A DNA stretch of 40,000 nucleotides, taken from NCBI RefSeq assembly GCF_014764715.1, contig NZ_JACXXE010000012.1, forward strand, positions 18,248-58,247. The letters are read 5' to 3'. The stretch's first letter is position 1, and each line of letters starts with the position of its first letter. Origin of the DNA: Bacillus sp. 28A-2 (lineage in GTDB: Bacteria; Bacillota; Bacilli; Bacillales; Bacillaceae). Below, piece after piece: positions 3,269 to 22,872 of the stretch. Both the position numbers and the translations under genes were made by a program. The notes below the pieces were generated by a model. The model was not told the DNA's origin. It saw only the letters and a list, made by a program, of their open reading frames with translations, and searched no databases.

Positions 3269-4301
3269 TGACGTTCACCTGCCCTAGACGCGGGATTTCA
3301 ATGTCTTGGAGGGGCAAGTTTTTGGCTTCGCCGTTTATCAAGACATCCGCATAATCAGATACACTATCCGCATGATATAAAATGTCATTGATCGCTGACA
3401 TTCTGATCACATTTTCTTCAAAAGCAAGTGATTTTAGGAGAGCCTTGATCTTCTCCTCTATTTCTTGTTGAGCATCTTCAAGTGAATAGTCCATTTTAAG
3501 CTCTACAGATACAGACACCTCTACATCTTTCCATTTGGCACTTTCAACAGTTGCGGTCGCTCCAATCGGTGCTTGACCTTCCCCTTCCCCTGGAACCGGA
3601 TCAATGTACTCTTGGACCTTATTGACGAGCAAATCCGTCGCAACATCAAAATTCCCATCTGTGATGACAACTTTCACTGTGCCTTCCCCGTTCCAAAGAG
3701 GAAAAACCTTTGCTCTGCCAACTCCTTCTACTTCTTCAGCCCACTTTTTATAATGTGCTTTATTAGCGCTAACAGCCTCCCGCCTTGCCCTCATCAAGTA
3801 CCGCTCATAAAGAGCTTCATCATCTTCTTCCTCTTGCCCTGGTATCTTCAATTCTTCAAATATGACAGACTCCAGCCCTGGTATGTTATCGAGTGATAGG
3901 AGCGGCAGCTCTGCAAAATTCCCGTTGCCTACAGCACCAGTCGTTTCACATTTCAAAGTTCCATCGGATTGAAATTGAAAATATAGACTATCAATGTAGA
4001 ACCTTGATCCAGTTGGTATTCTGATAGTTTTAGGTGTCACATCAACGGACCATACAGCACTTGTGGCAGCTTTACGAGTGATTCCAACTTCAGCAGCTCG
4101 TCTATCTAAAAATTCTCCCTGCGCTGTATCCGCAAAGACAAGATCGAATACCTGATCAAGCCATATATAAGATTGAGCAAGTTCCGCAGCTGCAGGAGCC
4201 AGCGCATTCCATATAACGCTGTTTTCACGTTTATCAATATCATCGGGTATACGTTCCAACATGCGTTCCATGATGGCTTCATACGATTGTTCTTCAAACA
4301 T
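3255..4301 (-). CDS. xkdT: Baseplate J-like protein
   Basis: About 348 aa, matching the size and position of PBSX XkdT. The start is set at ATG 4301, 10 nt after GGAGGTG; the track TTG start sits only 1 nt after the SD. Confidence 0.65.
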
Positions 4302-6108: not shown

Positions 6109-6771
6109 CTATTGTGGTATTTTTAATTTTTGACCAGGGAAAATCCAATGCCCTGGTTGTCTAATATTGCGTCTACTTCGTTTGATCATCGCGGCTTTAT
6201 TCGCATTCCAAATGCGGCGCCATTTTGTGCTATCACCATAGAAGCGGCCAGAAATATCCCACAAGGTATCACCCTTTTTAACGGTGTACACTTTTGGTGC
6301 GCCTTTTGAGCTGCGTTTTTTGCTGCTCTTTTTGGCTTTCCGTTTAATTTTTCTAGGTGATGCGGTTTTGTATTCTTTCAGCTGCAGCGTGAATTCTCGA
6401 TCACCAACATCATAAGTACCTTCATTGTGATTGAAGCTTTCTATGCTGCATTGCATATTGATTTTGGTTCCAGTAACGATAAAGCGTACAGGCTTCTTTG
6501 AACGCATCATTCGTTCAATTTTCGCTATCGCATTCTCTGGTGATGGAATGCTTTTATATTCAGCGATCGGTGTATACTTCTTGGGAAAAAAGGCTGTAAA
6601 TGAAATTTGGCGAGCCCCTGGTACATCCAAGAATGTGAGCTCGCCAAATTTTGATACTTTGATAGATTCATTTTGTACGTTGTTATTGAGTTCCAATTTC
6701 TCAGGAAGAACAGGGAATCGTAATTTGTCCTTCCCTTGCGAAATCCACAATTGATATTTTGATTTAGCCAT
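6109..6771 (-). CDS. xkdP: LysM-domain tail protein
   Basis: 220-aa ORF with a C-terminal LysM motif ([31 protein letters not shown]...[10 protein letters not shown]). It lies immediately after the tape measure gene, as XkdP does. Confidence 0.7.
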
Positions 6772-9700
6772 CGATCACGACTCCCTTCGTTCCTGTGTTG
6801 ATTTCATTCTCTAACTCATCAATCAACATCTGTTTGATCTTCTCTGCAAGCCCTTCTGCATCTTGGCCATTATGATAATGCTGTTCACCATTAAAATTAA
6901 TGATGATCTGTTTTGATCCACCAGAAGCAGAAGGTGCATTCGCTGTGCCGGCTGTTACTGTTTGCACCTGCCCTTGTGAAAGCTCAGATGATGTAGCGGT
7001 GGCCGGATCGTATACGTCCATTCCTAAAGCCTGTGCAGCTTGAGCCAACAAGTAGCGACCACGTATGCCACGCTCTTCAGGAATAATCCATTCACGCTTG
7101 TTTCCTTCACCGACTCTAGCGATTTGTTCTTGCGTGATTAGACCACCGTTTGCATACCCCTTATATGGTCCACCGTTTCTGATACTTCTCAATCCAGGTG
7201 TATTATAGACACTTCCATATCTGCCTTTGATGTAATTGATAGCAGCTGCAGCATTATGAATCGGGTTCCAGATGTCGTTCATGCCGCTTGCCTTATTAGA
7301 ATTAAAGGTCGGATCAATGGTTTGCATCAATCCTTTTGACGGCGTTCCTCTCTTGGCATTTGAATCCCATAGGTTGATCGCTTTCGGGTTTCCACGTGAC
7401 TCATTCTGTGCGATAGTCATCAAACCAGGTAGCCAGCTCATAGATGTGCCGGTTGCCATTAAAGCAGCCATCAGCCATTGTTGAACACTCAGGTTAGATG
7501 CACCCATTCCGCTAAATGCAGCAATTAAGGAACCGGCTTGATTCTCTGCGAATTTCTTTACATCAACTGAATCAAGACCTTTGACGACACCGATTGATGC
7601 GAATTTCCCAAGACTCATCATGACGCGTGAAGGAGAATGTATATCTAATTCTTCTCTAAACGCCTGTTCTACTTTCTTCGCCATTTCTTTAGCTGCTTGT
7701 GTCACTTCGCTTCCTTTGGAACGCATACCGCTGTTGAATGAGTCAATCAGTCCACTGCCCCATGTAGGTGACTCTTGTCGGGCAGATAAGAAAGGTTGTC
7801 TTACATTTTGATCTAAGAATTGACCTGTACCGGTTGGTGTCATGTTTTGACCTGCGGCAAAGCCAGTGACAGTTTGTGCTCCATACTGCGGAGTCGCTGC
7901 CTGAATTTGAGTAAATGGCTGCTTGATATTAGCTTGTTTCCACTGTTCAAGTGAAACGACTTTGCTGTTTAACCCTTTTTCAAAGTCAGTGCTAAACTGT
8001 TCCCCGTATTTTGATGCGTTGGCCGCGTCTCCAATTGATACCGATCCACTTGTAGAAGTGGAAACTGATGAAGCGGCTGCCGGTCTCATAGGAGATGATG
8101 AACCAGTTTGAGAAATTGGTGAAGCACCGCTTGGCATAACAGACATTCCAAGGTGAGAAGCAGCCTGAGCAAGCAACATCTTCCCCCGTCCTTTATTGTT
8201 TTCAGTTGGGATGACAAACTCTTTTCCTGCTTCTCCGATCCACGAGAGTGTTGGCTTTGTGATATAACCACCGGTGGCTTTCTGATCTGGCTTTTTTCCC
8301 TTAGTAGGGATTTTTTTATACCCTGTCTTTTCTTCACCTTTTTTTTCAAAAATTTTAAATACATTTCCGGTGGTTTCTTTAATTTTACCGACTACATTTC
8401 CTACAACTCCAAAGATACCTTCCCATGTTTTTTTTAAGTTTTCAGCATGTTTTTTTAGTGGATTAAACACTTTTTCCTCAAACCATCCACTCACTACTTT
8501 CCAAATACCTTTGATGATTGTCCATGCATCCTTAAATTTCTCCCACACGAAGGTAATCGCTGGCTCTGCATACTTTTTATATGGTTGCCACACATACTCA
8601 TCAAACCATGTTGCGAGCACCACCCATGATGTTTTAATCCAGTTCCAAGTGTTTTTAAATAGGTTCCAGATAAACATGATGGCTGGCAGACCAACGTTAA
8701 TAAAAGGCTGCCAAACGAAAGTATCAAACCATACCGCAAATGTACCCCAGACAAACTGAATCCAATTCCAGAACTCGGTTAATTTATTCCATACCCATAC
8801 GATGGCTTCAATCGCCACTGATCCAAATGGTTCCCAGACATATGTCATAAACCATGCTGAGAAAACGGACCAGGTGATTTGTATCCAGTTCCACAATTCA
8901 ACGATCTTGTTCCATACCAGGGTGATTGCAGTAACCGCCACTTGTCCGTACGGAGTCCATACATTGTCCATGAACCAAGTTGATGCAGCTCCCCATACGG
9001 TACTAATCACTTCCCACGCAACGACAAAAACACCAACTACAAAGTTGATGATCGGTACTGCAAAGTTATAAATCGGCAGCCACACGTTATTCATGAACCA
9101 TGAAGAAAGCTGCCCCCATTTCTCTGTGATCCAGGTCCATGTGTCGCTGAAGAACGTTGTAATAGGAGTTAGCACATTATCATTGAACCAACCGGAAACA
9201 GTGCTCCATGTGTCTTTAATCCATTGGACTGCATTTTCCGCCCCTTTTACAAGCTCATCCCATTTCTTTTTGATAGTTCCGTCATCGAACATCTTGCCGA
9301 TCCAATTACCGAGATCGCCGCCAAAGATGCTCCCTAATACTCCACCGATAGCTGTTCCGATTCCAGGGGCGATCAATGTACCAAGCGCAGCTCCACCGAT
9401 ACCGCCGCCTAGATTTCCCATGAATCCACCGATCTTTTCGCCTTTGTTGTCATTATTCATGCCAATTAACTCGGTGGCTGCTATAGCTGTACCGAGAATA
9501 GGAATACGTTTCCCGATGCTCTTTGCACCTTTACCGACTTTACCTAACAATCCACCGCCACGCGCTTGGTTTGGTGTGGTTGGTCTTACTGGATCTCCTC
9601 TATTGATCCAAGGCTGACGATATTCAGGAGTTCGTGGGTTCCTTGGCGGTCGCCCTGCTCCTCCAGCTCCGCCGATTACACCGCCGCTGGTTCCTGCTCC

Positions 9701-11740
9701 CATTCCTCCTCTTAAACCTTTGCCCCATTTGTAGACAGCAAAAGCGCCAGAAAGAATGGATTTAAGCGGCTTTAATAAAGTGGCCACTTTTCCTAAGAAC
9801 GCAAGCGCAAACGCATTGGCAATCAAAGCACCAGCAATTGAGCATTCTCCAGTAAGAGCATTCCAGTTGATCTCACCGATCTTTTTGGCAATACGGATAC
9901 CTAATTTCACAGGATCAAGGGCTTCAAGAAACGATTCAATGAATATCTTTCCTGCCTTAGCTCCTGCATCAGTGAAACTGTCCTCGGATGATTTGTCATC
10001 AATACCAAGTAGACCGTTAATTACACCGTTTATGATGCCACCGTAGGTCTTACCGACATTCTCCGCCATTTTGAAAAGACCAGGTTTCCCCGTCTTCTCC
10101 CACCACGCTCCGAAAACATCCTTCGTGTTATCAAGGACGAGCTTCCATCTTGTCTCAAAGCTCATATCTCGATATTTCTCAAGCTGTTCAAAGTGCTTCT
10201 GTAATTTGGGGTTATCCTTAAATTTCACCTTGAGCTCTTTCATTTGCTTCTTGGAGAGTTTTTCTCCAGGAAACAGAATTTTAAATTGATCACCAATAAA
10301 TCCGAATACGCTTTTGGTCGGATTTAAAAAGCTATTTGCAAAGGCTTTACCAGCCTTTTCAGCTTTATTGGAAAGGTCGGTCAGTACAAAGGAGTATTCC
10401 CCACGCCATGTTCTAAACGCTTCGAGAGCGGGTTGAAACGCAGCTGCAAGTCCTTTACCCCAAGGCATAAGAATGCTGTTGTTGATGAATGATTTGACAC
10501 CAAGGAATAAGTTGGCTAGGTTGTCGGACATTTTGATCATCATGTCGTTGTATTTGCCAAATTCCTTCGTTACTTCCGGCCATGTTTGCTTGATGTCTTT
10601 TCCGCTCTTTGCAAGTTTTTCGAGCTTACCTCTGGCATCACCAGAGATCGCCCCCATTTCCTGAAGCGCTGCCGTTGCGTCACCGATAGGACGCCCCGAT
10701 TTAATGCCGTCATATAAACGCCCCATCCATAGCGCAACTTCGGAAAATGGCCGCTGAACACCTGCAGCAACATCCCCGACTAGCTTCATGCCTTCAGTCG
10801 TAGAAAGGGCATTGCCCGTAAATACTTGGAGGACGCGAGATGACTCGAAAATTTCATCACGAGTAAATGGCGTTTGACCAGCAAATGCCGTCAGTTCATC
10901 CAGTCGTGCATCTGCTTTACCCCTGCTTCCGAGCAAAGTTTCAAACGCAGTGGTCATATTCTGTCGATCCGCTACCATTTTGAGCGGCACGACAATACCA
11001 CCTGTTGCACCGGCACCGACTCCAAGCAATCCAAGTGTGCTGGTGACAGCTGACACAATCCCCCTCAATGGCTTTGTGATAAGGTCAAGGACCTTGATTG
11101 TGGTTGTGTAAGTCCGTCCCAAATGGGTATTTGCAAATGAGACAGCCCCACGTACTGGAGCCGTAAAACGATCGATCGCATTGATCGCTACCCTGTATTC
11201 AGTACCGAGGGTATTCCGAGTATAAGACGCTATACGGCTTACCGTGCGCCGGACCATATCAACGGCTCTAATGGTATAGCTGTAGCCCCGACCAAGCTGA
11301 CGTGCTGCATATGAAGCAATACGTCTGATTCCTGCGGTTGCCCGATCATGGACCGTTATGGCAAACCGTTCTACTTTGCCAAATTTCCGATCGATGTAAC
11401 GACGCAGCCGGACAAGTCCTGGTGTTGCCTGATCTTTAATACGCATCAACACGCTATGAGTACGCGGCATCTTGCGTTGTAAGAAGCCATTGAACTTTCT
11501 CAATGCTTTTGTGGCCAGATCATTTACATCAAGCGTCAGCTGATAAGTTCTAGCAAGATCACGCAATATGAATCGCTGCACACGTCTTAATGCAATTGTG
11601 GCATTGTCCCGTACTCTCAATGTGATTGGCCGCTCTGATCTGCGGCGCAATCTATCAAGTCGTTCTAAGTCCCCTCTGATCAAACGCAATTTACGCGTGA
11701 TCCGGTCTTGTAATTCAAACCGAGCGGTTAAACGAGCCAT
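6764..11740 (-). CDS. xkdO: Tail tape measure protein with C-terminal lytic transglycosylase domain
   Basis: 1658-aa ORF with AAAGGAGGA before the ATG. It has Arg-rich N-terminal repeats, Gly-rich hydrophobic segments and seven WF..NVW.P repeats. An SLT-like motif ([30 protein letters not shown]) is present. Confidence 0.85.
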
Positions 11741-11743
11741 GTC

Positions 11744-12369
11744 TTATCCTCCTTTCTTCGATTCCTTTTCAAGCACTTCTAATTTGTGGGCTATTAACCC
11801 AAACAAAAAGGCCTTGAATCGCCTTGGCGCTTCATAGACCTCTAAGAGTTCAGACGGGGAGTAATGAAGCTCATGCATGCAGTAATACAGATACACAGCC
11901 TCTTTGTTCCCGTCTTTTATTAGTTTTTTGCTTCAGTTTCAAGGTCCTCAATTTCATCTTCAAACCCATTGACCTCAATTGCTTTGTTTAACCAGTTCGC
12001 ATATTCACCGCCGACAGACAGGACACGCTTTGCCACTTCGACTGGATCTTGGGTGCTGTATGCCTCACGCAATTCCTTTGATTTGAAATCAGGGTAAATG
12101 GTTGATTCAACCGCGATACGTGCATAGAAGCGTTGAGAATCCAAGTCTTTTACACGTCCACGACCTTTAACATTTTTGAACGTTGTGTTTTCCTTCTCCA
12201 ATTCGTCAATACGTTCAGTTGTAATGGCTTTAAATACGAATGGGATCACTTTACCTTCTTTATCAACGAAACGCTTTGAAATGATTGATTTGACCTCTTC
12301 CGCTTCTGTTGTTTGTCCTGGCATAAAGAATGAAAGATCATATACGTTGTTTGTTTGTTTTTCGCTCAT
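11744..12369 (-). CDS. Tail assembly chaperone, long isoform by predicted -1 frameshift
   Basis: After a slip at 11929-11923 the reading continues ...KKLIKDGNKEAVYLYYCMHELHYSPSELLEVYEAPRRFKAFLFGLIAHKLEVLEKESKKGG. It stops at 11746-11744, 3 nt before the tape measure ATG. This fills an otherwise gene-free 180 bp. Confidence 0.5.
11920..12369 (-). CDS. xkdN: Tail assembly chaperone, short form
   Basis: 149 aa from ATG 12369, which lies 9 nt after AAGGGAG (MSEKQTNNVYDLSFF...). Its position between the tube and tape measure genes fits. The track's longer 176-aa start lies in the intergenic region. Confidence 0.6.
   Translation of the reverse strand: MSEKQTNNVYDLSFFMPGQTTEAEEVKSIISKRFVDKEGKVIPFVFKAITTERIDELEKENTTFKNVKGRGRVKDLDSQRFYARIAVESTIYPDFKSKELREAYSTQDPVEVAKRVLSVGGEYANWLNKAIEVNGFEDEIEDLETEAKN
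11923..11929 (-). promoter_or_regulatory. Slippery heptamer A_AAA_AAC for a -1 programmed frameshift
   Basis: On the minus strand, GCA AAA AAC TAA places A_AAA_AAC in X_XXY_YYZ phase, ending directly at the chaperone stop codon. The -1 frame stays open for 59 more codons. Confidence 0.55.
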
Positions 12370-12403
12370 GTTTAAAAACTCCCTTTGATTTGTTTTTTTG
12401 AAT

Positions 12404-12438
12404 GCAAAAAAGCACATCCATTTTTTGAATGTGCTTTC
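12404..12438 (-). terminator. Intrinsic terminator-like hairpin just upstream of the chaperone gene
   Basis: A perfect 9-bp stem (aaagcacat 12410-12418 / atgtgcttt 12430-12438) with an 11-nt loop reads on the minus strand as stem, then a TTTTTT run that includes the last three stem bases, then GCATTC. Confidence 0.45.
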
Positions 12439-12451
12439 CAATCTTTTCATG

Positions 12452-12457
12452 TATAAT
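12452..12457 (+). promoter_or_regulatory. Candidate -10 box (TATAAT) for the toxin mRNA
   Basis: A perfect TATAAT preceded by TG lies about 70 nt upstream of the toxin ATG. No good -35 is present at 17 nt. Confidence 0.35.
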
Positions 12458-12527
12458 TGAGAACGTACAATTGAACGGCTTGCTCAAGGGTGTCTGGCTC
12501 ATCCCCGATAGGAAGGGGGTGATGCTC

Positions 12528-12611
12528 ATGTCAACGTTCCAAGCGATTTCCCTAATGCTTTTATTCGGGATGTTTATCCTTGCTTTGTTGACGTATATAA
12601 ACAAAAAATAG
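12528..12611 (+). CDS. Type I toxin, 27-aa hydrophobic peptide (Hol-Tox / BsrE-BsrH-like)
   Basis: SD GGAAGGGGGTGA lies 7 nt before ATG 12528. Translation is MSTFQAISLMLLFGMFILALLTYINKK, a single TM helix with a basic tail. It is on the opposite strand to all neighbours and resembles my recollection of B. subtilis BsrE. Confidence 0.65.
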   Translation: MSTFQAISLMLLFGMFILALLTYINKK

Positions 12612-12648
12612 ACTCCCCTTGAGCTTTGGACGGTTGAAGGGAAAGTCT
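12602..12648 (-). terminator. Intrinsic terminator of the candidate antitoxin RNA
   Basis: On the minus strand AGACTTTCCCTT (12648-12637) pairs with AAGGGGAGTCT (12620-12610): 11 bp with one bulge and a 16-nt loop. TTTTTT follows, which is the complement of the toxin's last Lys codons. Confidence 0.45.
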
Positions 12649-12730
12649 ATCCTTAAAACTATCTAATTGATAAGCCAGCCCCTTGAAGGGCCTCATTGTA
12701 CATTGCCGGGATGTTGACGCATCCTGGCTT
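12603..12730 (-). ncRNA. Candidate antisense antitoxin RNA (about 125 nt) complementary to the toxin mRNA 3' UTR
   Basis: It is bounded by a minus-strand promoter (TTTACA, 16 nt, TACAAT) and a minus-strand terminator. It contains no ORF. It fully overlaps the toxin 3' UTR and terminator. Confidence 0.4.
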
Positions 12731-12736
12731 CTTTTT
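12705..12736 (+). terminator. Intrinsic terminator of the toxin mRNA
   Basis: gccgggatg (12705-12713) pairs with catcctggc (12720-12728), including one G-U pair, around a 6-nt loop. TTCTTTTT follows. Confidence 0.6.
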
Positions 12737-12764
12737 ATTGTATGCAAATCACTTTGCATGTAAA
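12737..12764 (-). promoter_or_regulatory. Sigma-A-type promoter for the antisense RNA (TTTACA, 16 nt, TACAAT)
   Basis: On the minus strand the -35 TTTACA is at 12764-12759 and the -10 TACAAT at 12742-12737. The 16-nt spacer is itself a palindrome (tgcaaa tcac tttgca). Confidence 0.45.
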
Positions 12765-12802
12765 CAAGTTTTTTCTCGAATGGTGAATGGTGGGTTCACT
12801 AT

Positions 12803-12829
12803 TATCCCATGTATCCCATGTATCCCATT
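12803..12829. repeat. 9-bp tandem repeat x3 (TATCCCATG TATCCCATG TATCCCATT)
   Basis: Read directly from the sequence. It is intergenic, about 40 bp upstream of the antisense-RNA promoter on the minus strand. Confidence 0.9.
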
Positions 12830-12928
12830 TATCAAAAGTATATCATATTTGTACAAAAAAGTGAAAATACCTTATTTAAAAACACTCATAGTCAGTTCTT
12901 TTGTTACATTTTCTATGGTGATTAAATT

Positions 12929-13372
12929 TTAAAAGGAATCTTTCAGCTTCTCAGGAAGATCAAAGTCCTCAAACGTGAAAGGAACCTCTTCTTCAAGTGC
13001 CTCTGAATCGACATCTAGTCCAGCAATTTTAGCTGAATCAAAGTTCACATCAAACAATGTGACACGCTCTGTGCCGCGGCCAGATGATTTGTCATCCAGT
13101 ACAGCTTGAATGGTGAAGTATGGATCTTGTCCTTTCTTTACATAGTTCAGCATGAGCTGAACGAAACGTGATGTGACTTTATAGAAAGTCGCTGTGCCAG
13201 TACCATTCGCACCGGTTGTCTTGTGACCGGTCATACGACGGCCCATGACATTGACCTCTGATTTGTTTTTCTCCACGTTCGCTTCAAATGTTTTAATAAA
13301 CGCCAATTCCTCACCATCGAGGAATAAGCGTCCTTCCTTACCTGAAATGGTATTCTGCGCTTTAAAAGCCAT
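12929..13372 (-). CDS. xkdM: Tail tube protein
   Basis: 147-aa ORF (the same length as PBSX XkdM) immediately after the sheath gene. The N-terminus is MAFKAQNTISGKEGRLFLDGEE... Confidence 0.8.
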   Translation of the reverse strand: MAFKAQNTISGKEGRLFLDGEELAFIKTFEANVEKNKSEVNVMGRRMTGHKTTGANGTGTATFYKVTSRFVQLMLNYVKKGQDPYFTIQAVLDDKSSGRGTERVTLFDVNFDSAKIAGLDVDSEALEEEVPFTFEDFDLPEKLKDSF

Positions 13373-13373
13373 C

Positions 13374-14720
13374 TTATTTCACCTCTACATTGAAATAGAA
13401 TTTTTCAGCTGCATCAACAGGTTGAACAGCTAGATCAATCAAGAAACCGTCACGATCTTCATTTAAAGCGATCGTAATATCTGTTTCAGAGTCAAAGCCA
13501 GTGATTCCAGATCCATCTTGGAGCTGCGTGAGATATTGTGTGATGAGTGTTTTCACCAGCTGCAGCCCATCATCAGATGCAGGAATGTCATTGCCGTTGG
13601 CTTTGCGTAATTTAATCAGATTCTTCAATTCTCTCGTTAGATCGTTGTTGATCGCATCGAGCACTCGGACAATTTTGTTTTTCCCGAATGTCTTGTTCTT
13701 CTCGGTTGTGTAAGTCGTTAAGGAGTTAATGTCCTTTTCAACGCTTACTGTGCGATCTCTCGCATCAAATGTGAACAAGAATTCGCCTTGTGATAAGCGG
13801 TATTCCACTTGATCATTATCAAGACGCTCTAACGTATCCACAGCACCCTCATATTCAACAAAGGTTAACGACTGATTGAAGTTGGCTCCTGCAGATGCAC
13901 CGGCAACCCATGCTGTTGCTTTTGCTGGCGTGATCTCTGTTCCATCTTCTAGCAAGACACCGCTTGTGACATTGATAATTCCTTCATGATCAGCCGGATA
14001 GTTTGCCAAAACTCCTTGCACCTTACGTCCTTGATCATCACGCAGCCGCTTGACGAAAGCCACAAATGTCGCTTTTAATTGCTCACTAGTGTTATTAGGC
14101 AGCGCGATCACGTCAAAGTATTCTGTCTCAGCTGCTTCAAGAAATGCTGTGTAATCTGCCACGCTTGGAACACCATTTTTCCCACCGCTTAGTGTTACAC
14201 CAGCGGTGATTGTCACTTCACCTTCACCAGAGAACGAAACATATTTGTTTTGCTTCAGCTCTTTGACATCAGTGACAACCTGCTTATCAACAATGTCTGT
14301 ACCAACGTAAGTCACCACATCACGCTTGGAGCTATCCAATACGTTTTCAGTGACTTGGATCGTGACCTCATTCCCTTTCTGTCCACCATAATTAGCAAGA
14401 ACGTTGAAATTCTCGCTGATCTGAGCCTTTGCTGGCTCACCTTCATTCAGGCGATACAAAAGAACCGTTTGTGCTTTTTTCTTCGCTTCTCGGAAAAGAA
14501 GCAGTGATTTGTCATCAATGTTTAATCCGACTTTTTTATTTAAGTCCTCGATGCCTGAGATAGAGATGAACGTCTTAGGCTCTCCCCAACTCATTGTGAT
14601 TGGGAGTGCAACGGTGCCGCGATCACCTAACGTGATACGCTGCTGTGCTGTGGTTTTGAAATTGAAGTAGATACCAGGGCGCTTCTTTTCTGTACCTGGT
14701 GTAAAAGTACCTCCATTCAT
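13374..14720 (-). CDS. xkdK: Contractile tail sheath protein
   Basis: 448-aa ORF. The N-terminus MNGGTFTPGTEKKRPGIYFNF is typical of sheath proteins. It is followed by the tube gene. Confidence 0.85.
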   Translation of the reverse strand: MNGGTFTPGTEKKRPGIYFNFKTTAQQRITLGDRGTVALPITMSWGEPKTFISISGIEDLNKKVGLNIDDKSLLLFREAKKKAQTVLLYRLNEGEPAKAQISENFNVLANYGGQKGNEVTIQVTENVLDSSKRDVVTYVGTDIVDKQVVTDVKELKQNKYVSFSGEGEVTITAGVTLSGGKNGVPSVADYTAFLEAAETEYFDVIALPNNTSEQLKATFVAFVKRLRDDQGRKVQGVLANYPADHEGIINVTSGVLLEDGTEITPAKATAWVAGASAGANFNQSLTFVEYEGAVDTLERLDNDQVEYRLSQGEFLFTFDARDRTVSVEKDINSLTTYTTEKNKTFGKNKIVRVLDAINNDLTRELKNLIKLRKANGNDIPASDDGLQLVKTLITQYLTQLQDGSGITGFDSETDITIALNEDRDGFLIDLAVQPVDAAEKFYFNVEVK

Positions 14721-15393: not shown

Positions 15394-15900
15394 TCACCGT
15401 CCAAATCGTTCATCGATCCATTGCTGCAGCTTACGTTCCAATGATTGTTCAAACATCTGCTCAAAGATAGATATTGCATTATCCCAATAGCCGCTGCCCT
15501 CAACCCACTGGAACTTTAGAAGCATTCCTGTTTCAGAGTTTGGATCGTATTCAAACCGGTCACCAACCCATCTGCCAGGAACCCATCGCCTGTCCTGATT
15601 TTTACTAGTATCAATCGTAAAGTGTCCATCGTTTGTGTAAGATGCATATTCCAAGTTGGTCCCTACATCTAGGGTGAGACCGCCACTGCTCATCGAAAAG
15701 ACGTTTTCTTGGTCTCCTTTTTGGAATGAGTTGAGCAAACGACGAGCATCCACTGTTTTTGTACGAATGACTTCATCCTGAACAATATCAAGAAACTCAT
15801 AGCCCATTCCTTCAAGCCATTCTTCATATTCTGCTTGCAAGCCGCCATTAACAGCTGCATTCAAATCCTCTATGAACTGATCAAGACCATCAATCCTCAT
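15394..15900 (-). CDS. HK97 gp10-family head-tail joining protein (XkdI-like)
   Basis: 168-aa ORF whose position and size match XkdI/YqbI. A 4-nt overlap couples it to the upstream gene. Confidence 0.5.
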   Translation of the reverse strand: MRIDGLDQFIEDLNAAVNGGLQAEYEEWLEGMGYEFLDIVQDEVIRTKTVDARRLLNSFQKGDQENVFSMSSGGLTLDVGTNLEYASYTNDGHFTIDTSKNQDRRWVPGRWVGDRFEYDPNSETGMLLKFQWVEGSGYWDNAISIFEQMFEQSLERKLQQWIDERFGR

Positions 15901-16253
15901 AGGCTTTCACTCCTCATCGCTATAACCTCAATATGATGGTTTTTAATCTTCCTAGGCTTTTGCAGTTTCAAAGTAATGCCTTCCCATACTACTTTGTCAT
16001 TTATTCGGACATCAGCATTACTAGGAAAATGAACAAGGTACGATTGATGAATGGTTGCGTTTGGCTCCTGCTGTGTGATGTTTTGATTTCTCTCTGTGAA
16101 GTAACATGCTTGATCAACTTGATCAGGCTCATCAGGATATGAAAAGATCGGCTGCGCATCCTGAACCGGCACGCCAAAACGATCTTTTGACAGCTGCTCA
16201 TTCTTTAGGTGGAAAATATCGCATCGATCCGTTAATAATGATTGATAGCTCAT
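15897..16253 (-). CDS. Head-tail adaptor (XkdH/YqbH-like)
   Basis: 118-aa ORF in the head-tail connector block, with a 4-nt overlap on both sides. Confidence 0.5.
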   Translation of the reverse strand: MSYQSLLTDRCDIFHLKNEQLSKDRFGVPVQDAQPIFSYPDEPDQVDQACYFTERNQNITQQEPNATIHQSYLVHFPSNADVRINDKVVWEGITLKLQKPRKIKNHHIEVIAMRSESL

Positions 16254-16642
16254 AGCGATCTCAACCTTAACTTGACGTTACCTGGATCTTCTGGCGCTTC
16301 TCCTGGCTCAATGAAATCTATCAACAGGTTATACACATCTGGTTTTGATATGGCGTTACCATCTGCCAGAGTATATGAATAATCGCCAATCTTTTCAGAC
16401 TTGTACCCTTTGATAATGGATTCATCGCCATTTATTAACGCGAAGAACTGCGCCATTTTAATTAATGCGATCTTAGCCTTTTCAGGAAGCGGCTGATATT
16501 TACCGCTTGTGAAATCATGACCTGCAATCTTAAATACCTCGGCTTCAGCCTCAATGATGTCACTTTCCAATAGTTCATCTGAGCGGTTTTTCACAGATTC
16601 AAATACTGTATATGCCCTAACATCTTCAGGAGAGATCAGCAT
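16250..16642 (-). CDS. Head-tail connector protein (YqbG-like, DUF3199)
   Basis: 130-aa ORF placed as the second gene after the major capsid gene. The call rests on order and size. Confidence 0.45.
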   Translation of the reverse strand: MLISPEDVRAYTVFESVKNRSDELLESDIIEAEAEVFKIAGHDFTSGKYQPLPEKAKIALIKMAQFFALINGDESIIKGYKSEKIGDYSYTLADGNAISKPDVYNLLIDFIEPGEAPEDPGNVKLRLRSL

Positions 16643-16647
16643 CAGCC

Positions 16648-17013
16648 TTACTCTCCTGTTTTTTCTTGTTGCTGTTGATGCTCAAGGATGAAGGCAATTC
16701 TTTCACTCTTATCTTTGAGCTGAGTCGGATCGCCGCCAAGATCAATAACAATGGCTTCTTGTTCAGTTTTGTTCATGCCCTTCAGTTCTGTTTCAGTGTA
16801 AATTTTTACTTCTTGTGCCGGTTCTTCTTCCTCTTTCACCGGCTCATCCGTTTTTGGATCATCAGCAGGAGCTTTTACTTCCTTACAAGCAAAAAACTCA
16901 TTGCCATCGAGATATTGAAAAACCTTTTTCTCGATTTCCTTTACTTGATTAAGAAGAAAGACATGACCCATCACAGCGTATGTCTTTCCCTTGATCAATT
17001 CGGCTGTATACAT
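16648..17013 (-). CDS. Phage protein of unknown function with acidic/Pro-rich middle
   Basis: The start is set at ATG 17013, 8 nt after AAGGAG, giving MYTAELIKGK... It lies directly after the capsid gene. Confidence 0.4.
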   Translation of the reverse strand: MYTAELIKGKTYAVMGHVFLLNQVKEIEKKVFQYLDGNEFFACKEVKAPADDPKTDEPVKEEEEPAQEVKIYTETELKGMNKTEQEAIVIDLGGDPTQLKDKSERIAFILEHQQQQEKTGE

Positions 17014-17018
17014 GTTGA

Positions 17019-17948
17019 TCACTCCTTGACCTTGACGATCTTAGCAACAGCATCTTCTTCCTCAAATTTGCTGTCGAGCTTCGCAGTCAACACAATGATG
17101 AATTTACGTCTGCGAATGTCCTTATCAACCTCGATACGAATATTGCGAGAGAAGCCAAGGATAATGTTTTTCGGATGAGTAAGTAAGATGTCTGAAACAT
17201 CTGTGCCGTCCTCTCCCATTTCATATGGCTGCATGTTTGCAATACCTTTGACTGGAACACCGAATGCGGAAGAAAGTCCACCTTGTACAGCTGCATCCCC
17301 TAGATTTGTTTGACGATCTGCCACTTTGTCCTTCCACTCGACTTCTTGGCCAGGAGACGTATAAAAACGGAATTCTTGCGGAATACGCAGATATTTTGCT
17401 GGAACTGCTTTGTATCCTTGTTTAAACACTTGGCGTGTAAGTGGTTCACCAGCTACATCTACGATATGAGATGTTGCTTGCTTACGAATACCATCTAGCT
17501 GAGCAAGGTAAGCATCAGATGACGCTGTGTCACCATTAAGGATTAATTCTTCAATGTCTACTGCCGCTCGTTCCGCAAGCATTTGCATGATAGTATTTTG
17601 TAAATTATCACCCTCGATGTTATTTTCAAGCGTGTCATATGTGATATTTACTTCAGCGATGACTTCTTTTGCATTAAGCTCCACAGTGCTTGTTGTTGGC
17701 GCAGTCTTTTGCTCATTAGTTAAACCTACACCTTCTTGACCAGGACGAAGAATCCGCTGACCAAAACCGATTTTTTCAATTTTTTGTGCATCACTATCCA
17801 TTGGAATGACACGTGCATCTTGTAGCAGTGTTGGTGCATTTTGCACCATACGAATAAATGTGCTAGATTGGGTCGGATTCATGAGACCGCCTGTTTTTAA
17901 AGTAGCAAGCGTCACTTCCGCTTTGTTAATTACCTCTTGATTTCTCAC
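17019..17948 (-). CDS. xkdG: Major capsid protein
   Basis: About 309 aa from GTG 17948, 5 nt after AAAGGAGGAA. It follows the scaffold/protease gene, and its size matches XkdG. Confidence 0.75.
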
Positions 17949-17971
17949 TCTAGTTCCTCCTTTTTCTCGGC

Positions 17972-19132
17972 TTAAAGCAAGCCGTCCCATACCGTTTCAG
18001 ATTTTTGTAGGTCTTGTTGTTGATCTCCTACTCCATTACCTTGCGGACGTGCTTTTTCAAGCGCTTCGACTCTTTCAACAACTGGAGCCAATGCCTTTTC
18101 TACAGCTGCGGCCATTTCTTTTGCAACAGCTTCATCCGGCTGATTTTCTTGCGGATCAGGTTGCTGCTCGCCTTCTCCTTTTTCAAGGTCATCCAGACGC
18201 TTTACGACCGGTGCAATTGTATCCTCTAGCATTTTTTGTAGATCTTCTTTTTTCACTTCTTCGTTCTCCTCCTTCTCTTCCGCTTGACTCAACAGATTGT
18301 CGATAGCGGCTCTGGCATTTTTCAATTCAGTTAAGTTAGCAGCTGAAAACTTTCGGCCAGCTTTTGCGACTTCTTCAGGTGGATCAGTTTGGATCCCCGC
18401 TAAGTCATCAGTAAGCAAAATCTCTTGTGTGATTTCCACAAAATCTTGCAGTGCTGCCCTTACCTTTTCAGGATCAGTCTCCAAGTCTTCATCGTCGTAA
18501 GAATCCCATTTAAACAAAACGGAATTCAGTGCATCTTGTGCCGCCCAAAACTCCCGACGCATGCGGCCTTTGTCGTATCGGTTCTTCACTTCTCCTTTAG
18601 AAAAGAAGTTTTTAAGCAAAGAAAAAAGCCCCTTCTCATCAGAAGCTGGCTTGTGATCCTCTTGTTTTCCTATATCCGCTGTTCCGGCCATTGAATATCC
18701 GGTGATCTCGCCCTTTTGAATCTGTTCCCAAATTTCATCGGAAGCCTTCGTCACAAGGACCCACGATCCTTTCTTGATAACTTCACCGCCCATTTCAAAA
18801 TCGGAAGGAGCAATGTAAGATTCAACGACTTCCCCGACACCGCCTTGGAAATCATGCTGCTTATCGATCTCACGTGCATCTTTCAGGAACCCATGAGCGG
18901 CTTTTTCAATTTCTTCTGGTGTCATATAGTCTCCATGTGCATCCGCAACGTTTGGTTCGTATACAATACCGTATACAAGACGCTGCGCATCATCAGCCTT
19001 CGCAATGACCTTGATCTCTTTTTGAAAGTCTGGCTGCTTTTCTGACTTCATAAAAAAGAACTGCTTTTGATTAGCAGCCTTGTCTACATATGAAACGTGT
19101 GTGATCTTCGCATTAAACAATTCGCGTGGCAA
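17972..19132 (-). CDS. XkdF-like prohead protease/scaffold fusion protein
   Basis: The N-terminus ...[23 protein letters not shown] fits the XkdF family (recall). The C-terminal half is an acidic coiled coil. The start is probably TTG 19132, 6 nt after GGAGGTG; the track's GTG start lies inside the SD. Confidence 0.6.
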
Positions 19133-19133
19133 T

Positions 19134-20051
19134 TCATTCACCTCCTTTCAAAACCGCTTCTCTAATTTTTTCTTTTTCCTCTGCTGACAATCCTAGAATA
19201 ACAGGATCAACCACAGGACCAACCGCACAATGACAGTTTACCCTCTCTTTCGGCGTGAGCTGTGTATCTCTCGGAAACATGCACCGCTCTCCGCTGCCTG
19301 GTATCTCAAATTCTTCATCCAAAGGGATGATCGTCCCGTCCAGTTGCACATGACTTTCTCTTGACTGATTCTTCTTCCCGCCGCTGTGCTTCCATCGCTT
19401 TGCCGTAACCGCCGGTGATTGTACATATGACTCATGTTGAGCGACGGAAGAAGCAGTCAACACTTCAGTTACAGCTGTCACACGTGCGCGCTTGCGGCTG
19501 AATTCAGGAAGGTCCTTCAGCTCCAATTCAATCTCCTGGATAGAACGGCCTTCTTTTATACCCTCTTTCAGCGTTTGCTCTATGGCTGTATGAGTATTCA
19601 GCTGCATCAGCTGCGCCAATTCCTGTGACCATGATTCAATCCACTGTTCAGTTTTCTCAGAAAGCACCTTGAATGGAATATCTGCATCGATGGAATGCAT
19701 AATCTTTTCGGCCAGCTGCGTGACAGTCAAAGTCAAGAATATGGCCGTTTCTTTTCCGAACAGCTCCGCAAATTCATCAGCTGCAAACAAGTCATTTTGA
19801 AAAAACGCTAGAATTGATTCTAATGTCTCCGAATCGTCTTTGGATATAAAACCATTTAGTGCTTTCAAAAACGTCCTGTGTTGCAATCTGAACAATTTAG
19901 CGGTGATTTTTTCGTATTCCTCCACTAAAGATGGAATGTCTTGTAGTTCAGGGAAATCAGCCACCGCCGCTTTGAGTTCCTCAACCTCATCTGCCTCCGC
20001 TTTTTGCACAAAGGTATTGATGTTTTTTATCAGCTGATCAATCTTGCTCAT
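19134..20051 (-). CDS. Head morphogenesis protein (SPP1 gp7 / Mu F-like minor capsid)
   Basis: 305-aa ORF directly after the portal gene. The C-terminal motif ...FPRDTQLTPKERVNCHCAVGPV is typical of the gp7 family (recall). Confidence 0.65.
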   Translation of the reverse strand: MSKIDQLIKNINTFVQKAEADEVEELKAAVADFPELQDIPSLVEEYEKITAKLFRLQHRTFLKALNGFISKDDSETLESILAFFQNDLFAADEFAELFGKETAIFLTLTVTQLAEKIMHSIDADIPFKVLSEKTEQWIESWSQELAQLMQLNTHTAIEQTLKEGIKEGRSIQEIELELKDLPEFSRKRARVTAVTEVLTASSVAQHESYVQSPAVTAKRWKHSGGKKNQSRESHVQLDGTIIPLDEEFEIPGSGERCMFPRDTQLTPKERVNCHCAVGPVVDPVILGLSAEEKEKIREAVLKGGE

Positions 20052-21568
20052 TTGCGGATCTCCTCTAGTTCATCCCTAACATCTTTTAAGAGATGGATCA
20101 GATCTTCCTGGGAACCCGCAGACTTTTGAAAAACCGTATCAAGCAAGCTAGTTGATGCCTTTGGCTTCGCCTCAATTGGTCGGTGATATTCTTCCTCTGG
20201 CCATTCTTCAAGTGTCTTACCAAGAATACGGCCAGCCAGATCACGCAGGTCATTCGGTGAAACCGCTCCTGCTTGAATAAACGGTGTAAGAACCTTTGCG
20301 ATTTCGAGCGGATCACGAAAGTCAGGTCCATTTAATATGAGTCGCACATGCCAGAGATCGAGATCAGGAAGGAAGAGTGTATTGAGCTTGCCGGTGATGA
20401 GCATTCTCTCCGGCTGAAATACCTGCTCTTCAGTTGTCTTTCGAGCGGTGTCAGCTGTCGCCTTGTTATAATCCTGTGATTCGCCAGTATAGATCGGCGG
20501 CAGACGGAATGAGGAACGTATCTTGTTTCTCGTCTTCTCATCATATTCAAGGAACAGCGCATCCTCCTGGAGAATCTCGGCCAGTGATTTTATATCCACC
20601 TTTACATTAGCCGGCTCTTCATCGTTCGATAGCTCATCCTTCTTCGGAATCCCTTCCACTTCGAGTAACAGGAATTTATGTGCATTGTCTGATCCTTCGA
20701 TGCCGTTCATGTATTCCTGCAGCTGCTGATATGAAGATTCAGAAAGCATTCCATTCTCTACAGTAATTGCAGCCGGCACATGCCGCCCTTGTTTAAAGTA
20801 CAGATAGTTCAGCTCTTCAGCTTTGCGCGCTCCATACATATTGACGATGTTACCAATCCAACGAGGAACACCATATGTACCGCTGCCGATCTTGAAGTGA
20901 ATGACTTCGCTTGCTACAAGATTAGAAGGAGTTTCTTCACTGTATTCTCCCGTAGCAGCGTTCAATGTTCTTGGATCACCGTACTCCTTGAAGAATACTT
21001 TTTTAGTGTTGACTTGCTGCACATACTTTCTGAACCGTTTCATTCTTTTCATGGTCTTAACTTCACCATGATCTGTATATTTAAAGTCGATCTCAACGGA
21101 ATCGCCTAACTTACAAATACGAATATATTGTGCATCCAGATATTCAATACCTGCAGGCTTCCCTGTACCTTCTCGAAGCACTTCGACAAATCCATTACCT
21201 GTTTTCTCTCGGTCTTCTATCACATAACCAAGGACCACTTCGGCTGACTCATCATAGTTCATATATCTGGCGAATTCTTCGAGTCTTGTCCATTCTTTCT
21301 CAGCTGCATCTTTCTTTTCTTTCGGTGCGTTCTCTGCGTTGAAATCGAAAGTATACTCAATTCCTAAGCCGAAACCTAGAATGTTGGTTTTATAAGCATC
21401 TATACATTGTTGAAGAATGGTAGAATACTCGGCTATTTGTTTGAGCTCCTTGATATTGTATGGCGGCTCAATAATGCCATCAGCCTCATAATTAAATCCA
21501 TCCTCATGAATTTGTTTGGTCGTTTCAGAAACAGTTGATTTAATCACAGTCGCTTTCACTTTATTCAT
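20048..21568 (-). CDS. Portal protein
   Basis: 506-aa ORF with a 1-nt overlap with terL. Its size and position are canonical. Confidence 0.85.
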   Translation of the reverse strand: MNKVKATVIKSTVSETTKQIHEDGFNYEADGIIEPPYNIKELKQIAEYSTILQQCIDAYKTNILGFGLGIEYTFDFNAENAPKEKKDAAEKEWTRLEEFARYMNYDESAEVVLGYVIEDREKTGNGFVEVLREGTGKPAGIEYLDAQYIRICKLGDSVEIDFKYTDHGEVKTMKRMKRFRKYVQQVNTKKVFFKEYGDPRTLNAATGEYSEETPSNLVASEVIHFKIGSGTYGVPRWIGNIVNMYGARKAEELNYLYFKQGRHVPAAITVENGMLSESSYQQLQEYMNGIEGSDNAHKFLLLEVEGIPKKDELSNDEEPANVKVDIKSLAEILQEDALFLEYDEKTRNKIRSSFRLPPIYTGESQDYNKATADTARKTTEEQVFQPERMLITGKLNTLFLPDLDLWHVRLILNGPDFRDPLEIAKVLTPFIQAGAVSPNDLRDLAGRILGKTLEEWPEEEYHRPIEAKPKASTSLLDTVFQKSAGSQEDLIHLLKDVRDELEEIRK

Positions 21569-22872
21569 CAGCGTGACCTCCTTTCTCTGTTCGGGCGTGT
21601 ACGCTCTTTTGGTTTCTCTTTCAGATCGGTGACCTCATAATCATCTAGCGCATACCAGATGGCTGAAAAAGTATGAGGGTCAATCTGAAACTCGTCCTCT
21701 ATGATATTGCCGCGCTTGTCTGTCTTGTACGTGAGTGGCTGAAGCTCATAGATCGTGTTTTTACATGAATCGGAACAAATGATTTTCTTAAACCGCTTGA
21801 TCTTCTTGGTGTACTGCAAGCGTGATCCTTGGAACTTATGAGCGGCCACCATGTTGTATCCCATCTTGCGGAAATATGCGATTGTCTTCTGCTCATTATC
21901 AGCCTTGATCAGCTCTTTTGTTTCAACGAACTCTTTCAAGTCCTCGACAGTGACATCATCAGTCTTGCCACGATCGTAATACTCCCAATAGATATATAGA
22001 TACTTCTTCTCATGATCTACAGCCAACCTAACCACAGCGTTATATGAATCAACGAAACCAAAGTCCATACCTGCTCTAAGCAAAGGACGATTGATATTTG
22101 AGATGGCCAGCATGACATCTTCATGCGGCTGCACCTCGAATTGTGGTAGGACGCGAATTCCGTTAACGCCAAAATGACCTTTTCGGGCTATGCGATAAAG
22201 GTCGGGATCGTATTCTTTTAGTTCGTCCAGCTGCTTGATATAGCTCACAGGTAGAAATAGGTTATCTTCTGCCGTCGAGTGGTGATAGTACGTATCGTTG
22301 ATGGAGATCGTTCGCTCTTTGTATAACCTTTCATCATCCAGGATAAAGCGGTTGTTTTGATCGTCCTTAAAGAAGTGACGGTATGTCCAGTTGTCTTGGC
22401 CAACAGGGTTCGTCGATAGAATCATGTGCAGCTGTAACGTTGGATGACGCAAACGACCAAGCAGCTCCTTGAATCCCTCGTACTTCACTTCTGAACATTC
22501 CTCAATCCAAATAATCGAGATGTTGTTGATCGACTTCAGCTTGGCTGGCTTGTCCAAACCTTTGAAAATGATCCGGCTGCCGTTATGGAATTTAAGCATG
22601 AGCGGTGATGTCCGGCACTGAATGACATGATCGAGTCCAAGATCATTCACGATCTCTTCAAACAGCGAAAAGGTTGAATCCCTGTGTGTGTCATAGACTT
22701 CACGAATCACAAGGGCTGTCCTCTTTTCATCCAGTAACTTTAAGATGAGTTTCAACGCAATGTGATAGCTTTTAGATGATCCATAACCACCCACCAAGAA
22801 CTGAAACTTCTGATCCCAGTCAAAAAGAAAGTCCTCAAAGTGTGGATTGACCTCTTTTTCCATCAGTTGCAT
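21568..22872 (-). CDS. xtmB: Terminase large subunit (PBSX XtmB family)
   Basis: 434-aa ORF with a Walker-A-like GGYGSSKS near the N-terminus. It lies between terS and the portal gene. Confidence 0.9.

Follow-up and report, generated by a model that had tools for sequence, protein, structure and literature searches.

The type I toxin-antitoxin (TA) loci bsrE, bsrG and bsrH are grouped in T1TAdb as one family, BsrE-G-H/as-BsrE-G-H, in which the toxin gene and an antisense RNA gene converge and overlap at their 3' ends. The closest known relative of the locus described here is bsrH/as-bsrH of the skin element of Bacillus subtilis. In skin, bsrH lies between yqdB (txpA) and yqbM (PMC2965217), directly beside the tail tube gene yqbM (Irnov Table 2, PMC2965217). 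Its product is a Hol_Tox peptide of 29 amino acids (aa) that ends in a K-rich tail, and at its 3' end the gene meets the convergent antisense RNA as-bsrH, for which a length of 200-233 nucleotides (nt) has been reported (PMC6562991, PMC2965217). We analysed a stretch of 40,000 nt from Bacillus sp. 28A-2 (contig NZ_JACXXE010000012.1), which we call the window and whose numbering is used throughout. In the same slot, in the gap between the tail tube gene and the tail assembly chaperone gene, the window carries a cassette with a 27-aa Hol_Tox peptide with a K-rich tail and a predicted convergent antisense RNA of about 227 nt, which is likened to as-bsrH by size, not base by base. We read this cassette as a type I TA system of the BsrE/BsrG/BsrH family, the positional counterpart of skin bsrH/as-bsrH and a self-contained module in a late tail operon, and we give this reading a probability of about 85%. 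The antisense transcript, the toxicity of the peptide and its neutralisation are proposed by analogy with bsrG/SR4, bsrE/SR5 and bsrH/as-bsrH. The locus belongs to an already well-described TA family at a position known from skin, and its peptide is already named in NCBI.

The other members of the family resemble the window cassette in part. bsrE/SR5, from the prophage-like element P6, belongs to the same toxin subgroup, BsrE/BsrH. Its mRNA has 255-260 nt against about 270 nt predicted here, its ribosome-binding site (RBS) is likewise sequestered in GC pairs, and it also overlaps its antitoxin at the 3' end. RNase III cuts bsrE mRNA near the stop codon (PMC6562991), which is the site of the predicted antisense terminator in the window. 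bsrE/SR5 differs in that BsrE has 30 aa and another C-terminus, in its genomic location, and in SR5, which has 163-171 nt and a non-overlapping 5' part of ~48 nt, whereas ~93 nt are predicted here. The RNA of the window matches the model of bsrG (bsrG/SR4 of SPbeta) from end to end, and its predicted long antisense RNA follows the four-stem-loop plan of SR4, whereas BsrG itself has 38 aa and falls in the TxpA/BsrG group and the window peptide is of the BsrE/H type. txpA/RatA of skin shares with the window the general architecture, a 3'-overlapping antisense RNA (~120 nt) and the skin neighbourhood. It differs in that TxpA has 59 aa and belongs to another toxin group, RatA has 222 nt, txpA is not the immediate neighbour of the tube gene, and its RBS strategy relies on more than 11 bp of anti-Shine-Dalgarno complementarity (PMC6562991). 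A sequence-only reading made earlier from the window had placed txpA/ratA at the equivalent position of skin, next to yqbM; the region was right, but the immediate neighbour is bsrH/as-bsrH, and txpA/RatA lies beyond it. Skin has a second cassette alongside, whereas the window has one, and the host element here is PBP180-like and of the pumilus/safensis group. ComI, a competence inhibitor of plasmid pBS32 (NF052249), is a related short peptide with a single transmembrane (TM) helix, and is defined by its plasmid context and competence phenotype.

The sequence-only reading had described, in a gap of about 560 bp, a TATAAT box, a Shine-Dalgarno (SD) sequence, a short open reading frame (ORF) and a 3' untranslated region (UTR) of about 95 nt that ends at a terminator. 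The gap measures 559 bp from tube stop to chaperone start (12370-12928), and the box, SD, ATG and TAG all lie where that reading had put them. The 3' UTR has ~93 nt up to the terminator stem and ~126 nt in total. The features of the toxin gene are as follows.

12452-12457, plus strand: toxin promoter -10 box TATAAT, with a poor -35; the Rfam model starts 9 nt downstream
12465-12737, plus strand: predicted toxin mRNA of the bsrE/G/H type, ~270 nt (Rfam RF01412, fold, conserved helices)
12500-12524, plus strand: predicted SD-sequestering hairpin, CAUCCCC/GGGGGUG (Rfam structure line)
12511-12522, plus strand: SD sequence GGAAGGGGGTGA, upstream of ATG 12528
12528-12611, plus strand: toxin ORF, 27 aa plus stop, MSTFQAISLMLLFGMFILALLTYINKK; ATG 12528, TAG 12609-12611, one TM helix and a KK tail
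12705-12737, plus strand: intrinsic terminator of the toxin mRNA; stem 12705-12728, then a T-run to 12736 (terminator scan)

The peptide had been proposed to be Hol-Tox/BsrE-like, and a hidden Markov model search agreed: it passes Pfam Hol_Tox (PF16935) with a score of 49.3 bits, where the cutoff is 23.3 (E = 4.4e-13, over residues 1-27). It also matches PHROG 9488. Its residues 6-24 have a mean Kyte-Doolittle value of 2.43. We place the peptide in the BsrE/BsrH group and not in the TxpA group, since it has 27 aa and a sequence of the BsrE/H type, whereas the TxpA type has 59 aa with a long C-terminal extension. The BsrH-like peptide of Bacillus rugosus (locus L031), also encoded next to the tube gene, is identical to it at 20/27 positions. 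The exact 27-aa peptide is present in NCBI as "putative holin-like toxin" on 13 contigs, and a 29-aa form on 207 contigs; a search for the peptide sequence in the full-text literature gave no match. The 29-aa form would start at the in-frame ATG 12522. This ATG is missing from loci L002 and L006, and therefore ATG 12528 is the conserved start. Among 16 distinct alleles of 27 codons, substitutions at codon positions 1, 2 and 3 number 798, 286 and 1080, a pattern that reads as a coding signature.

The RNA around this ORF carries equally specific information. Rfam RF01412 "BsrG" matches at full length (12466-12727, plus strand; model positions 1-259 of 259) and scores 161.7 bits (gathering score 55; E = 6.5e-41). 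RF01412 is the sole Rfam family found anywhere in the window, and 10 of 10 other copies tested match it too. This full-length match, the Pfam match and synteny with skin bsrH support the type I TA architecture that had been proposed from the letters of the window. The predicted toxin mRNA has a minimum free energy of -104 kcal/mol, with z = -6.8 against shuffles. In the predicted fold, helix P1 joins the 5' end to the region before the terminator, the SD lies inside the stem of stem-loop (SL) 1, SL2 and SL3 carry the start and stop codons at their bases, and the terminator is SL4. The modelled fold reproduces in this way the architecture of bsrG determined by probing (PMC3834814). It has been reported that the RBS of txpA, bsrE and bsrG is sequestered by 4-5 GC bp (PMC6562991), and the predicted hairpin 12500-12524 shows the same kind of sequestration. 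Weak Rfam matches to snoRNA, RsaE, rliA and FTX_4 (E 0.15-9.5, far under the gathering scores) were rejected as chance; those to RsaE and rliA overlie a terminator hairpin at 12404-12437.

We aligned 27 copies of the cassette from many species, whose flanks are unrelated between species groups. The toxin -10 box, the SD hairpin, the helix that closes the ORF, the stop-codon hairpin and the terminator are kept in these copies with compensatory changes. Five of the six positions of the toxin -10 are invariant in 27/27 copies despite unrelated upstream flanks, and a variable stretch of 7-8 nt separates it from a conserved GTACA start. The pairs of the SD hairpin are kept in essentially all copies, and in the ORF-closing helix GUCAA (codons 2-3) pairs with UUGAC near the end of the ORF. 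The toxin terminator has many compensatory pairs, and its folding energy is lower on the toxin strand in 25/27 copies, by 3.2 kcal/mol on average. The peptides have 25-37 aa, an N-terminus that reads M[ST]T[FY][EQ] or nearly so, and a K-rich tail at the other end; the exception is locus L014. The E-values, the z-score of the fold and the recurrence of the layout in 27 copies indicate that the cassette is more than chance. Another match to a promoter on the plus strand, TTTTCA-16-TACAAT (12444-12471), was rejected as the toxin promoter because the Rfam model opens with its TACAAT, six bases that pair with the 3' part of helix P1, and because the invariant box is TATAAT at 12452-12457.

The scaffold can hold different toxins. 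A 35-aa BsrG/TxpA-like ORF, MSTYEAISLMIAFGIYTLSILTLVVALLTIFKKKK, is found in L001:3754-3861, L004:3788-3895 and L024 (~3595-3896), whose tube proteins are identical or nearly identical to that of the window. This ORF replaces the 27-aa BsrH-like ORF within the same 5' UTR, SD and 3' antisense scaffold. Exchange of toxins within a scaffold is known, as bsrG/SR4-like loci that encode BsrH/E have been described (Brantl review, PMC6562991).

On the minus strand, the promoter TTTACA-16-TACAAT and the hairpin followed by T6, both listed by the sequence-only reading, are present, and a second promoter candidate was found further upstream.

12865-12837, minus strand: distal antisense promoter candidate, TTCACT-17-(TGA)TATACT, with an extended -10 TG; predicted start ~12830
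12764-12737, minus strand: proximal antisense promoter candidate, TTTACA-16-TACAAT; 10/12 match to consensus, the best sigma-70-type match in the region
12830-12604, minus strand: predicted antitoxin RNA, long form, ~227 nt (distal promoter start; fold)
12730-12604, minus strand: predicted antitoxin RNA, short form, ~127 nt (proximal promoter start; fold)
12648-12604, minus strand: predicted antitoxin terminator; hairpin 12648-12610 and U-tract (T6) 12609-12604

The antisense RNA more likely starts at the distal extended -10 promoter, near 12830, and the proximal promoter may be a second start, near 12730. In 30 copies lined up on the antisense strand past the toxin terminator, the motif TGnTA[TC]A[AC]T occurs in 20/30 on the antisense strand and in 0/30 on the toxin strand, whereas shuffles gave a mean of 0.99 and a maximum of 5; several further copies have TGTATAAT-like variants of the extended -10. 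In the SPbeta-like copies the distal promoter predicts a start ~52 nt outside the toxin 3' end. This agrees with the coordinates of SR4 and SR5: by the Irnov coordinates, SR4 (184 nt) would begin ~55 nt and SR5 (171 nt) ~48 nt beyond the toxin 3' end (PMC2965217). All characterised antitoxins of the family have 163-222 nt and a non-complementary 5' domain (PMC6562991, PMC3834814). Probing of SR4 revealed a non-complementary 5' SL1, then SL2, which is the complement of the toxin terminator, then SL3, and finally its terminator, SL4 (PMC3834814). In the predicted fold of the long form, a 93-nt 5' domain, which includes a palindrome hairpin at 12742-12759, precedes three stem-loops that complement the toxin 3' end, and the complement of the toxin terminator would form the stem-loop equivalent to SL2 of SR4. 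A four-stem-loop plan with a non-complementary SL1 fits the distal start and does not fit the proximal start alone. The overlap between the antisense RNA and the toxin mRNA's 3' end is predicted to be ~127 nt in both forms. An overlap of about 100-140 nt that extends to the ORF is expected for the family. For the ~125-nt, fully complementary antisense RNA that had been predicted, the expected overlap is therefore unchanged, while its length and start are probably different, as the distal promoter in 20/30 copies favours ~227 nt.

At the other end, the U-tract of the antitoxin is the complement of the two Lys codons adjoining the TAG stop. AAAAAATAGAC at the stop codon is nearly invariant in the 27 copies, with a consensus hairpin of 12 pairs. 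The terminator role of the hairpin 12648-12610 is a prediction from the adjoining U-tract and from analogy.

Two other features were seen in the 5' part of the long form. The perfect palindrome ATGCAAA-N4-TTTGCAT (12742-12759) lies in the spacer of the proximal promoter; its arms are conserved and its centre is variable in the pumilus group, and a looser ATGCA...TGCAT is present in SPbeta-like and plasmid copies. It could be an antitoxin 5' stem-loop or a protein-binding site. Three tandem direct repeats of 9 bp (ATCCCATGT, ATCCCATGT, ATCCCATTT) at 12804-12830 would make up the 5' end (~27 nt) of the long antisense RNA and are common only to close relatives such as L007 and L005.

If the cassette is such a TA system, it would work as follows. 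A weak promoter with a -10 only (12452-12457) would give a highly structured mRNA of ~270 nt with its SD locked in a GC hairpin, which would encode a 27-aa, single-helix membrane peptide with a KK tail. A convergent and constitutive antisense RNA would start outside the toxin terminator, most likely at ~12830 and possibly also at ~12730, would cross the complement of the toxin 3' UTR and would end at its own terminator, with its U-tract over the Lys codons. This RNA would be in excess, and through the ~127-nt overlap it would anneal to the toxin mRNA, with loop-loop contacts at the terminator loop as the probable starting point. RNase III, RNase J1 or both would then degrade the resulting duplex; in bsrE the RNase III cut is near the stop codon, and RNase J1 acts for bsrH (PMC6562991, PMC3531473). 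Toxin would be made only once the antisense RNA falls below the level of the mRNA. The peptide would insert into the membrane and, as a toxin of the BsrE type, would be weak and harmful only if overproduced. The likely role would be to stabilise the element or to serve in a stress response. The antitoxin promoter would be co-directional with the tail genes, and its own terminator together with an ancestral one (12404-12437) would shield the chaperone and tape-measure genes.

Several points weigh against this reading. B. subtilis bsrH mRNA is not RNase III-sensitive (PMC3531473), and therefore the degradation route cannot be transferred with confidence. The predicted antitoxin terminator hairpin has a large loop of 16 nt, and its folding energy favours neither strand (12 vs 15 copies), probably since the same stretch also takes part in pairing inside the toxin mRNA. 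The antisense RNA folds only modestly better than shuffles (z ~ -2.1 to -2.3). In L014 (3613-3882) the start codon reads AGG and the SD region has an extra A, and the peptide of L016 (3572-3844) has a Lys in the middle of its TM helix (MSTFQALMLKLAFG...); both look damaged, and some lineages may therefore be losing the toxin. Finally, the start of the antisense RNA is ambiguous between the two promoter candidates.

This ambiguity leads to the alternative that the antitoxin is only a short RNA of ~125 nt, fully complementary to the toxin mRNA and made from the proximal TTTACA-16-TACAAT promoter alone, which adjoins the toxin terminator. No other site in the region matches the consensus as well, and throughout the pumilus group this block is kept. 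Nearly all of the 27 copies have the -10 box (consensus TAAAAT), but a good -35 is confined to the pumilus group. A short antitoxin would also work, since SR4 variants without SL1, or without SL1 and SL2, still neutralise BsrG in vivo (PMC3834814). However, the -10-like box is also kept in SPbeta-like copies, where it has no usable -35 and where the Irnov coordinates put the start ~50 nt further out, and therefore its conservation need not mean promoter function. The box may extend the U-tract of the toxin terminator or form a single-stranded linker of the antitoxin, and the proximal -35 and -10 lie on either side of the palindrome, which could serve a longer RNA as its 5' stem-loop. The size and the non-complementary 5' domain of the characterised antitoxins, and the strand-specific extended -10 further upstream, also speak against it. 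We regard the short RNA alone as possible but doubtful, and prefer the long RNA from the distal promoter. More radically, the whole cassette might be an inert relic whose toxin is no longer expressed or toxic and which is carried along with the defective phage. The toxin promoter indeed lacks a good -35, and some copies have likely inactivating changes. Nevertheless, the ORF, SD, -10, both terminators and the helices are intact in the window and are conserved in the 27 copies with compensatory and coding-type substitutions, and toxin ORFs have been exchanged inside the conserved scaffold. The conserved parts and the exchange of ORFs argue for ongoing selection, so that a relic is improbable.

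The function of the peptide can also be read in other ways. It might be a ComI-like membrane regulator, e.g., an inhibitor of competence or DNA uptake, and the antisense RNA would then only tune its level. The best NCBIfam match of the peptide is ComI NF052249 (E = 5.5e-10), family peptides of the size of ComI are encoded on Bacillus plasmids, and the cassette itself is found on ~50 plasmids. The match, however, has 38.9 bits and is under the curated equivalog cutoff of 55, and the RNA scaffold and the position are those of bsrH/bsrG-type TA loci, which makes a regulator of this kind improbable. The names in Pfam and NCBI ("holin-like toxin"), and the location within the late structural operon of an inducible defective phage (PBP180), might suggest instead that the peptide is an accessory holin that aids lysis and the release of phage-tail-like particles on induction. 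A holin is marked by a lysis cassette, co-transcription with late genes and an endolysin neighbour. The toxin gene, in contrast, lies in the tube-chaperone gap on the strand opposite to the late operon, so that late transcription would be antisense to it; it has its own promoter and terminator, and no endolysin gene is its neighbour. The same cassette is also found on plasmids and in SPbeta-like phages, where its contexts are unrelated, and BsrG, the best-studied relative, forms no pores (PMC6562991). We therefore consider a holin the least credible of these explanations and keep to the reading of the cassette as a TA system.

The surroundings of the cassette are those of a phage tail module on the minus strand.

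13374-14720, minus strand: sheath gene, part of the tail module
12929-13372, minus strand: tail tube gene, XkdM/YqbM type (PF09393, E = 4e-53), the upstream flank in operon direction
12437-12404, minus strand: operon-internal intrinsic terminator, hairpin AAAGCACAT/ATGTGCTTT and a T-run, just upstream of the chaperone RBS
11920-12369, minus strand: tail assembly chaperone gene, XkdN/YqbN type (PF08890, E = 3.8e-38), the downstream flank
6764-11740, minus strand: tape-measure gene, 1658 aa, part of the tail module

We assign the host element to the PBSX/PBP180-like defective phages of the B. pumilus/safensis group. Its tube protein and that of Bacillus safensis FO-36b are 100% identical. The same tube protein is also present in genomes of 3.7-3.9 Mb, and there the gap already carries a called Hol_Tox gene. 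PBP180, a defective phage of B. pumilus (KC847113), carries the cassette at the same place in its tail module, with 96.3% identity at the DNA level, and encodes the same 27-aa peptide. Its record (L077, KC847113 11935-12374) has ORF18 and ORF19, each annotated as 'hypothetical protein', on the operon strand over the cassette; both calls are probably spurious and hide the toxin gene as well as the two RNAs. In the window, ORFs on the operon strand over the gap (e.g., 12338-12604 and 12574-12759) and a 78-aa ORF on the plus strand (12696-12932) were rejected as genes because the sequence outside the cassette is not conserved between sister loci.

To place the insertion, 70 related tail loci from species-representative genomes were compared. 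B. subtilis 168 is outside these 70 loci, and B. rugosus and B. spizizenii serve as proxies for skin. The cassette is in the tube-to-chaperone gap of 25/70 loci, with gaps of 428-1245 bp. It is present in every locus whose tube protein is at least 95% identical and in four loci of a lineage of ~89% identity. Other PBSX-type loci have no cassette and gaps of 74-166 bp, and in more distant relatives the gap is <100 bp. A hairpin with a T-run on the operon strand is found in the 60-170-nt gap of most cassette-free relatives examined, distant ones included. The hairpin at 12404-12437 is its equivalent in the window and folds better on the operon strand in 23/27 copies. Therefore, the cassette was inserted between the tube stop and this ancestral terminator. 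Related cassettes with 73-75% identity are carried by SPbeta-like phages and by ~50 Bacillales plasmids, often near yolD/uvrX-type genes.

The tube-chaperone terminator itself is present in most PBSX-like tail modules examined, with or without a cassette (L027-L056, ~3445-3610), and its stems differ between lineages. It looks like an ancestral attenuator that would lower the expression of chaperone and tape measure relative to sheath and tube. The cassette lies in every case between the tube stop and this terminator, and its antitoxin promoter has the orientation of the tail genes. It is conceivable, although we consider it unlikely, that the cassette is wired into the tail operon: on induction of the defective phage, late read-through from the tube gene would be antisense to the entire toxin mRNA and would be a second, induction-linked source of antitoxin, and the antitoxin and ancestral terminators would together set the dose of chaperone and tape measure relative to sheath and tube. 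If this were true, the frequent swaps of BsrH- and BsrG-type ORFs in a constant scaffold, among strains whose tube proteins are identical, would suggest that diversifying selection acts on the toxin rather than on the RNA machinery.

Some further observations were made on these tail modules. A 50-aa ORF (11744-11896, minus strand) lies between the chaperone and tape-measure genes. It is a called gene of 48-50 aa in sister genomes, gave no match in Pfam, and may be a second product or a partner of the tail assembly chaperone. Several genomes of the pumilus group have two PBSX/PBP180-like tail modules, ~44-50 kb apart when on one contig. Examples are L007/L019 (B. safensis FO-36b contig5, 15894-22334 and 60414-66854), L011/L049 and L008/L020. 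Each module of such a pair has its own diverged cassette, and the toxin alleles and antisense leaders differ. In Bacillus swezeyi (L018:3442-4610), one gap contains two tandem BsrG-model cassettes, with toxins of 25 and 27 aa, that are separated by masked sequence (a run of N). In B. rugosus (L031:3442-4690) the gap has 1245 bp and holds, besides the BsrH-like cassette, ~700 bp with a 69-aa ORF (MTTVQFLQVLAPIALKVVADRYFKKK...), which has no Rfam match and is not obviously TxpA. In the cassette-free gap of Bacillus haynesii (L028:3445-3610), an additional hairpin, AAATAGACTGCAAAAGCTGGTCTATTT, with a T-rich stretch after it, lies upstream of the ancestral terminator. This hairpin is similar to the ATAGAC...GTCTATTTTTT terminator of the cassette's antitoxin and may be the scar that a lost cassette left behind.

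The analysis is of modest use at three levels. For annotation, the PBP180 record and many genomes leave the cassette out or have spurious ORFs called over it, and the antisense RNA is annotated in none of them. For the anatomy of these elements, the cassette lies upstream of the ancestral terminator of the tail operon in one PBSX/skin-like lineage and is absent from the sister lineage. Lastly, the comparative set of 27-30 copies points to the extended -10 as the conserved promoter of the antitoxin and shows that toxin ORFs are replaced within a constant scaffold.

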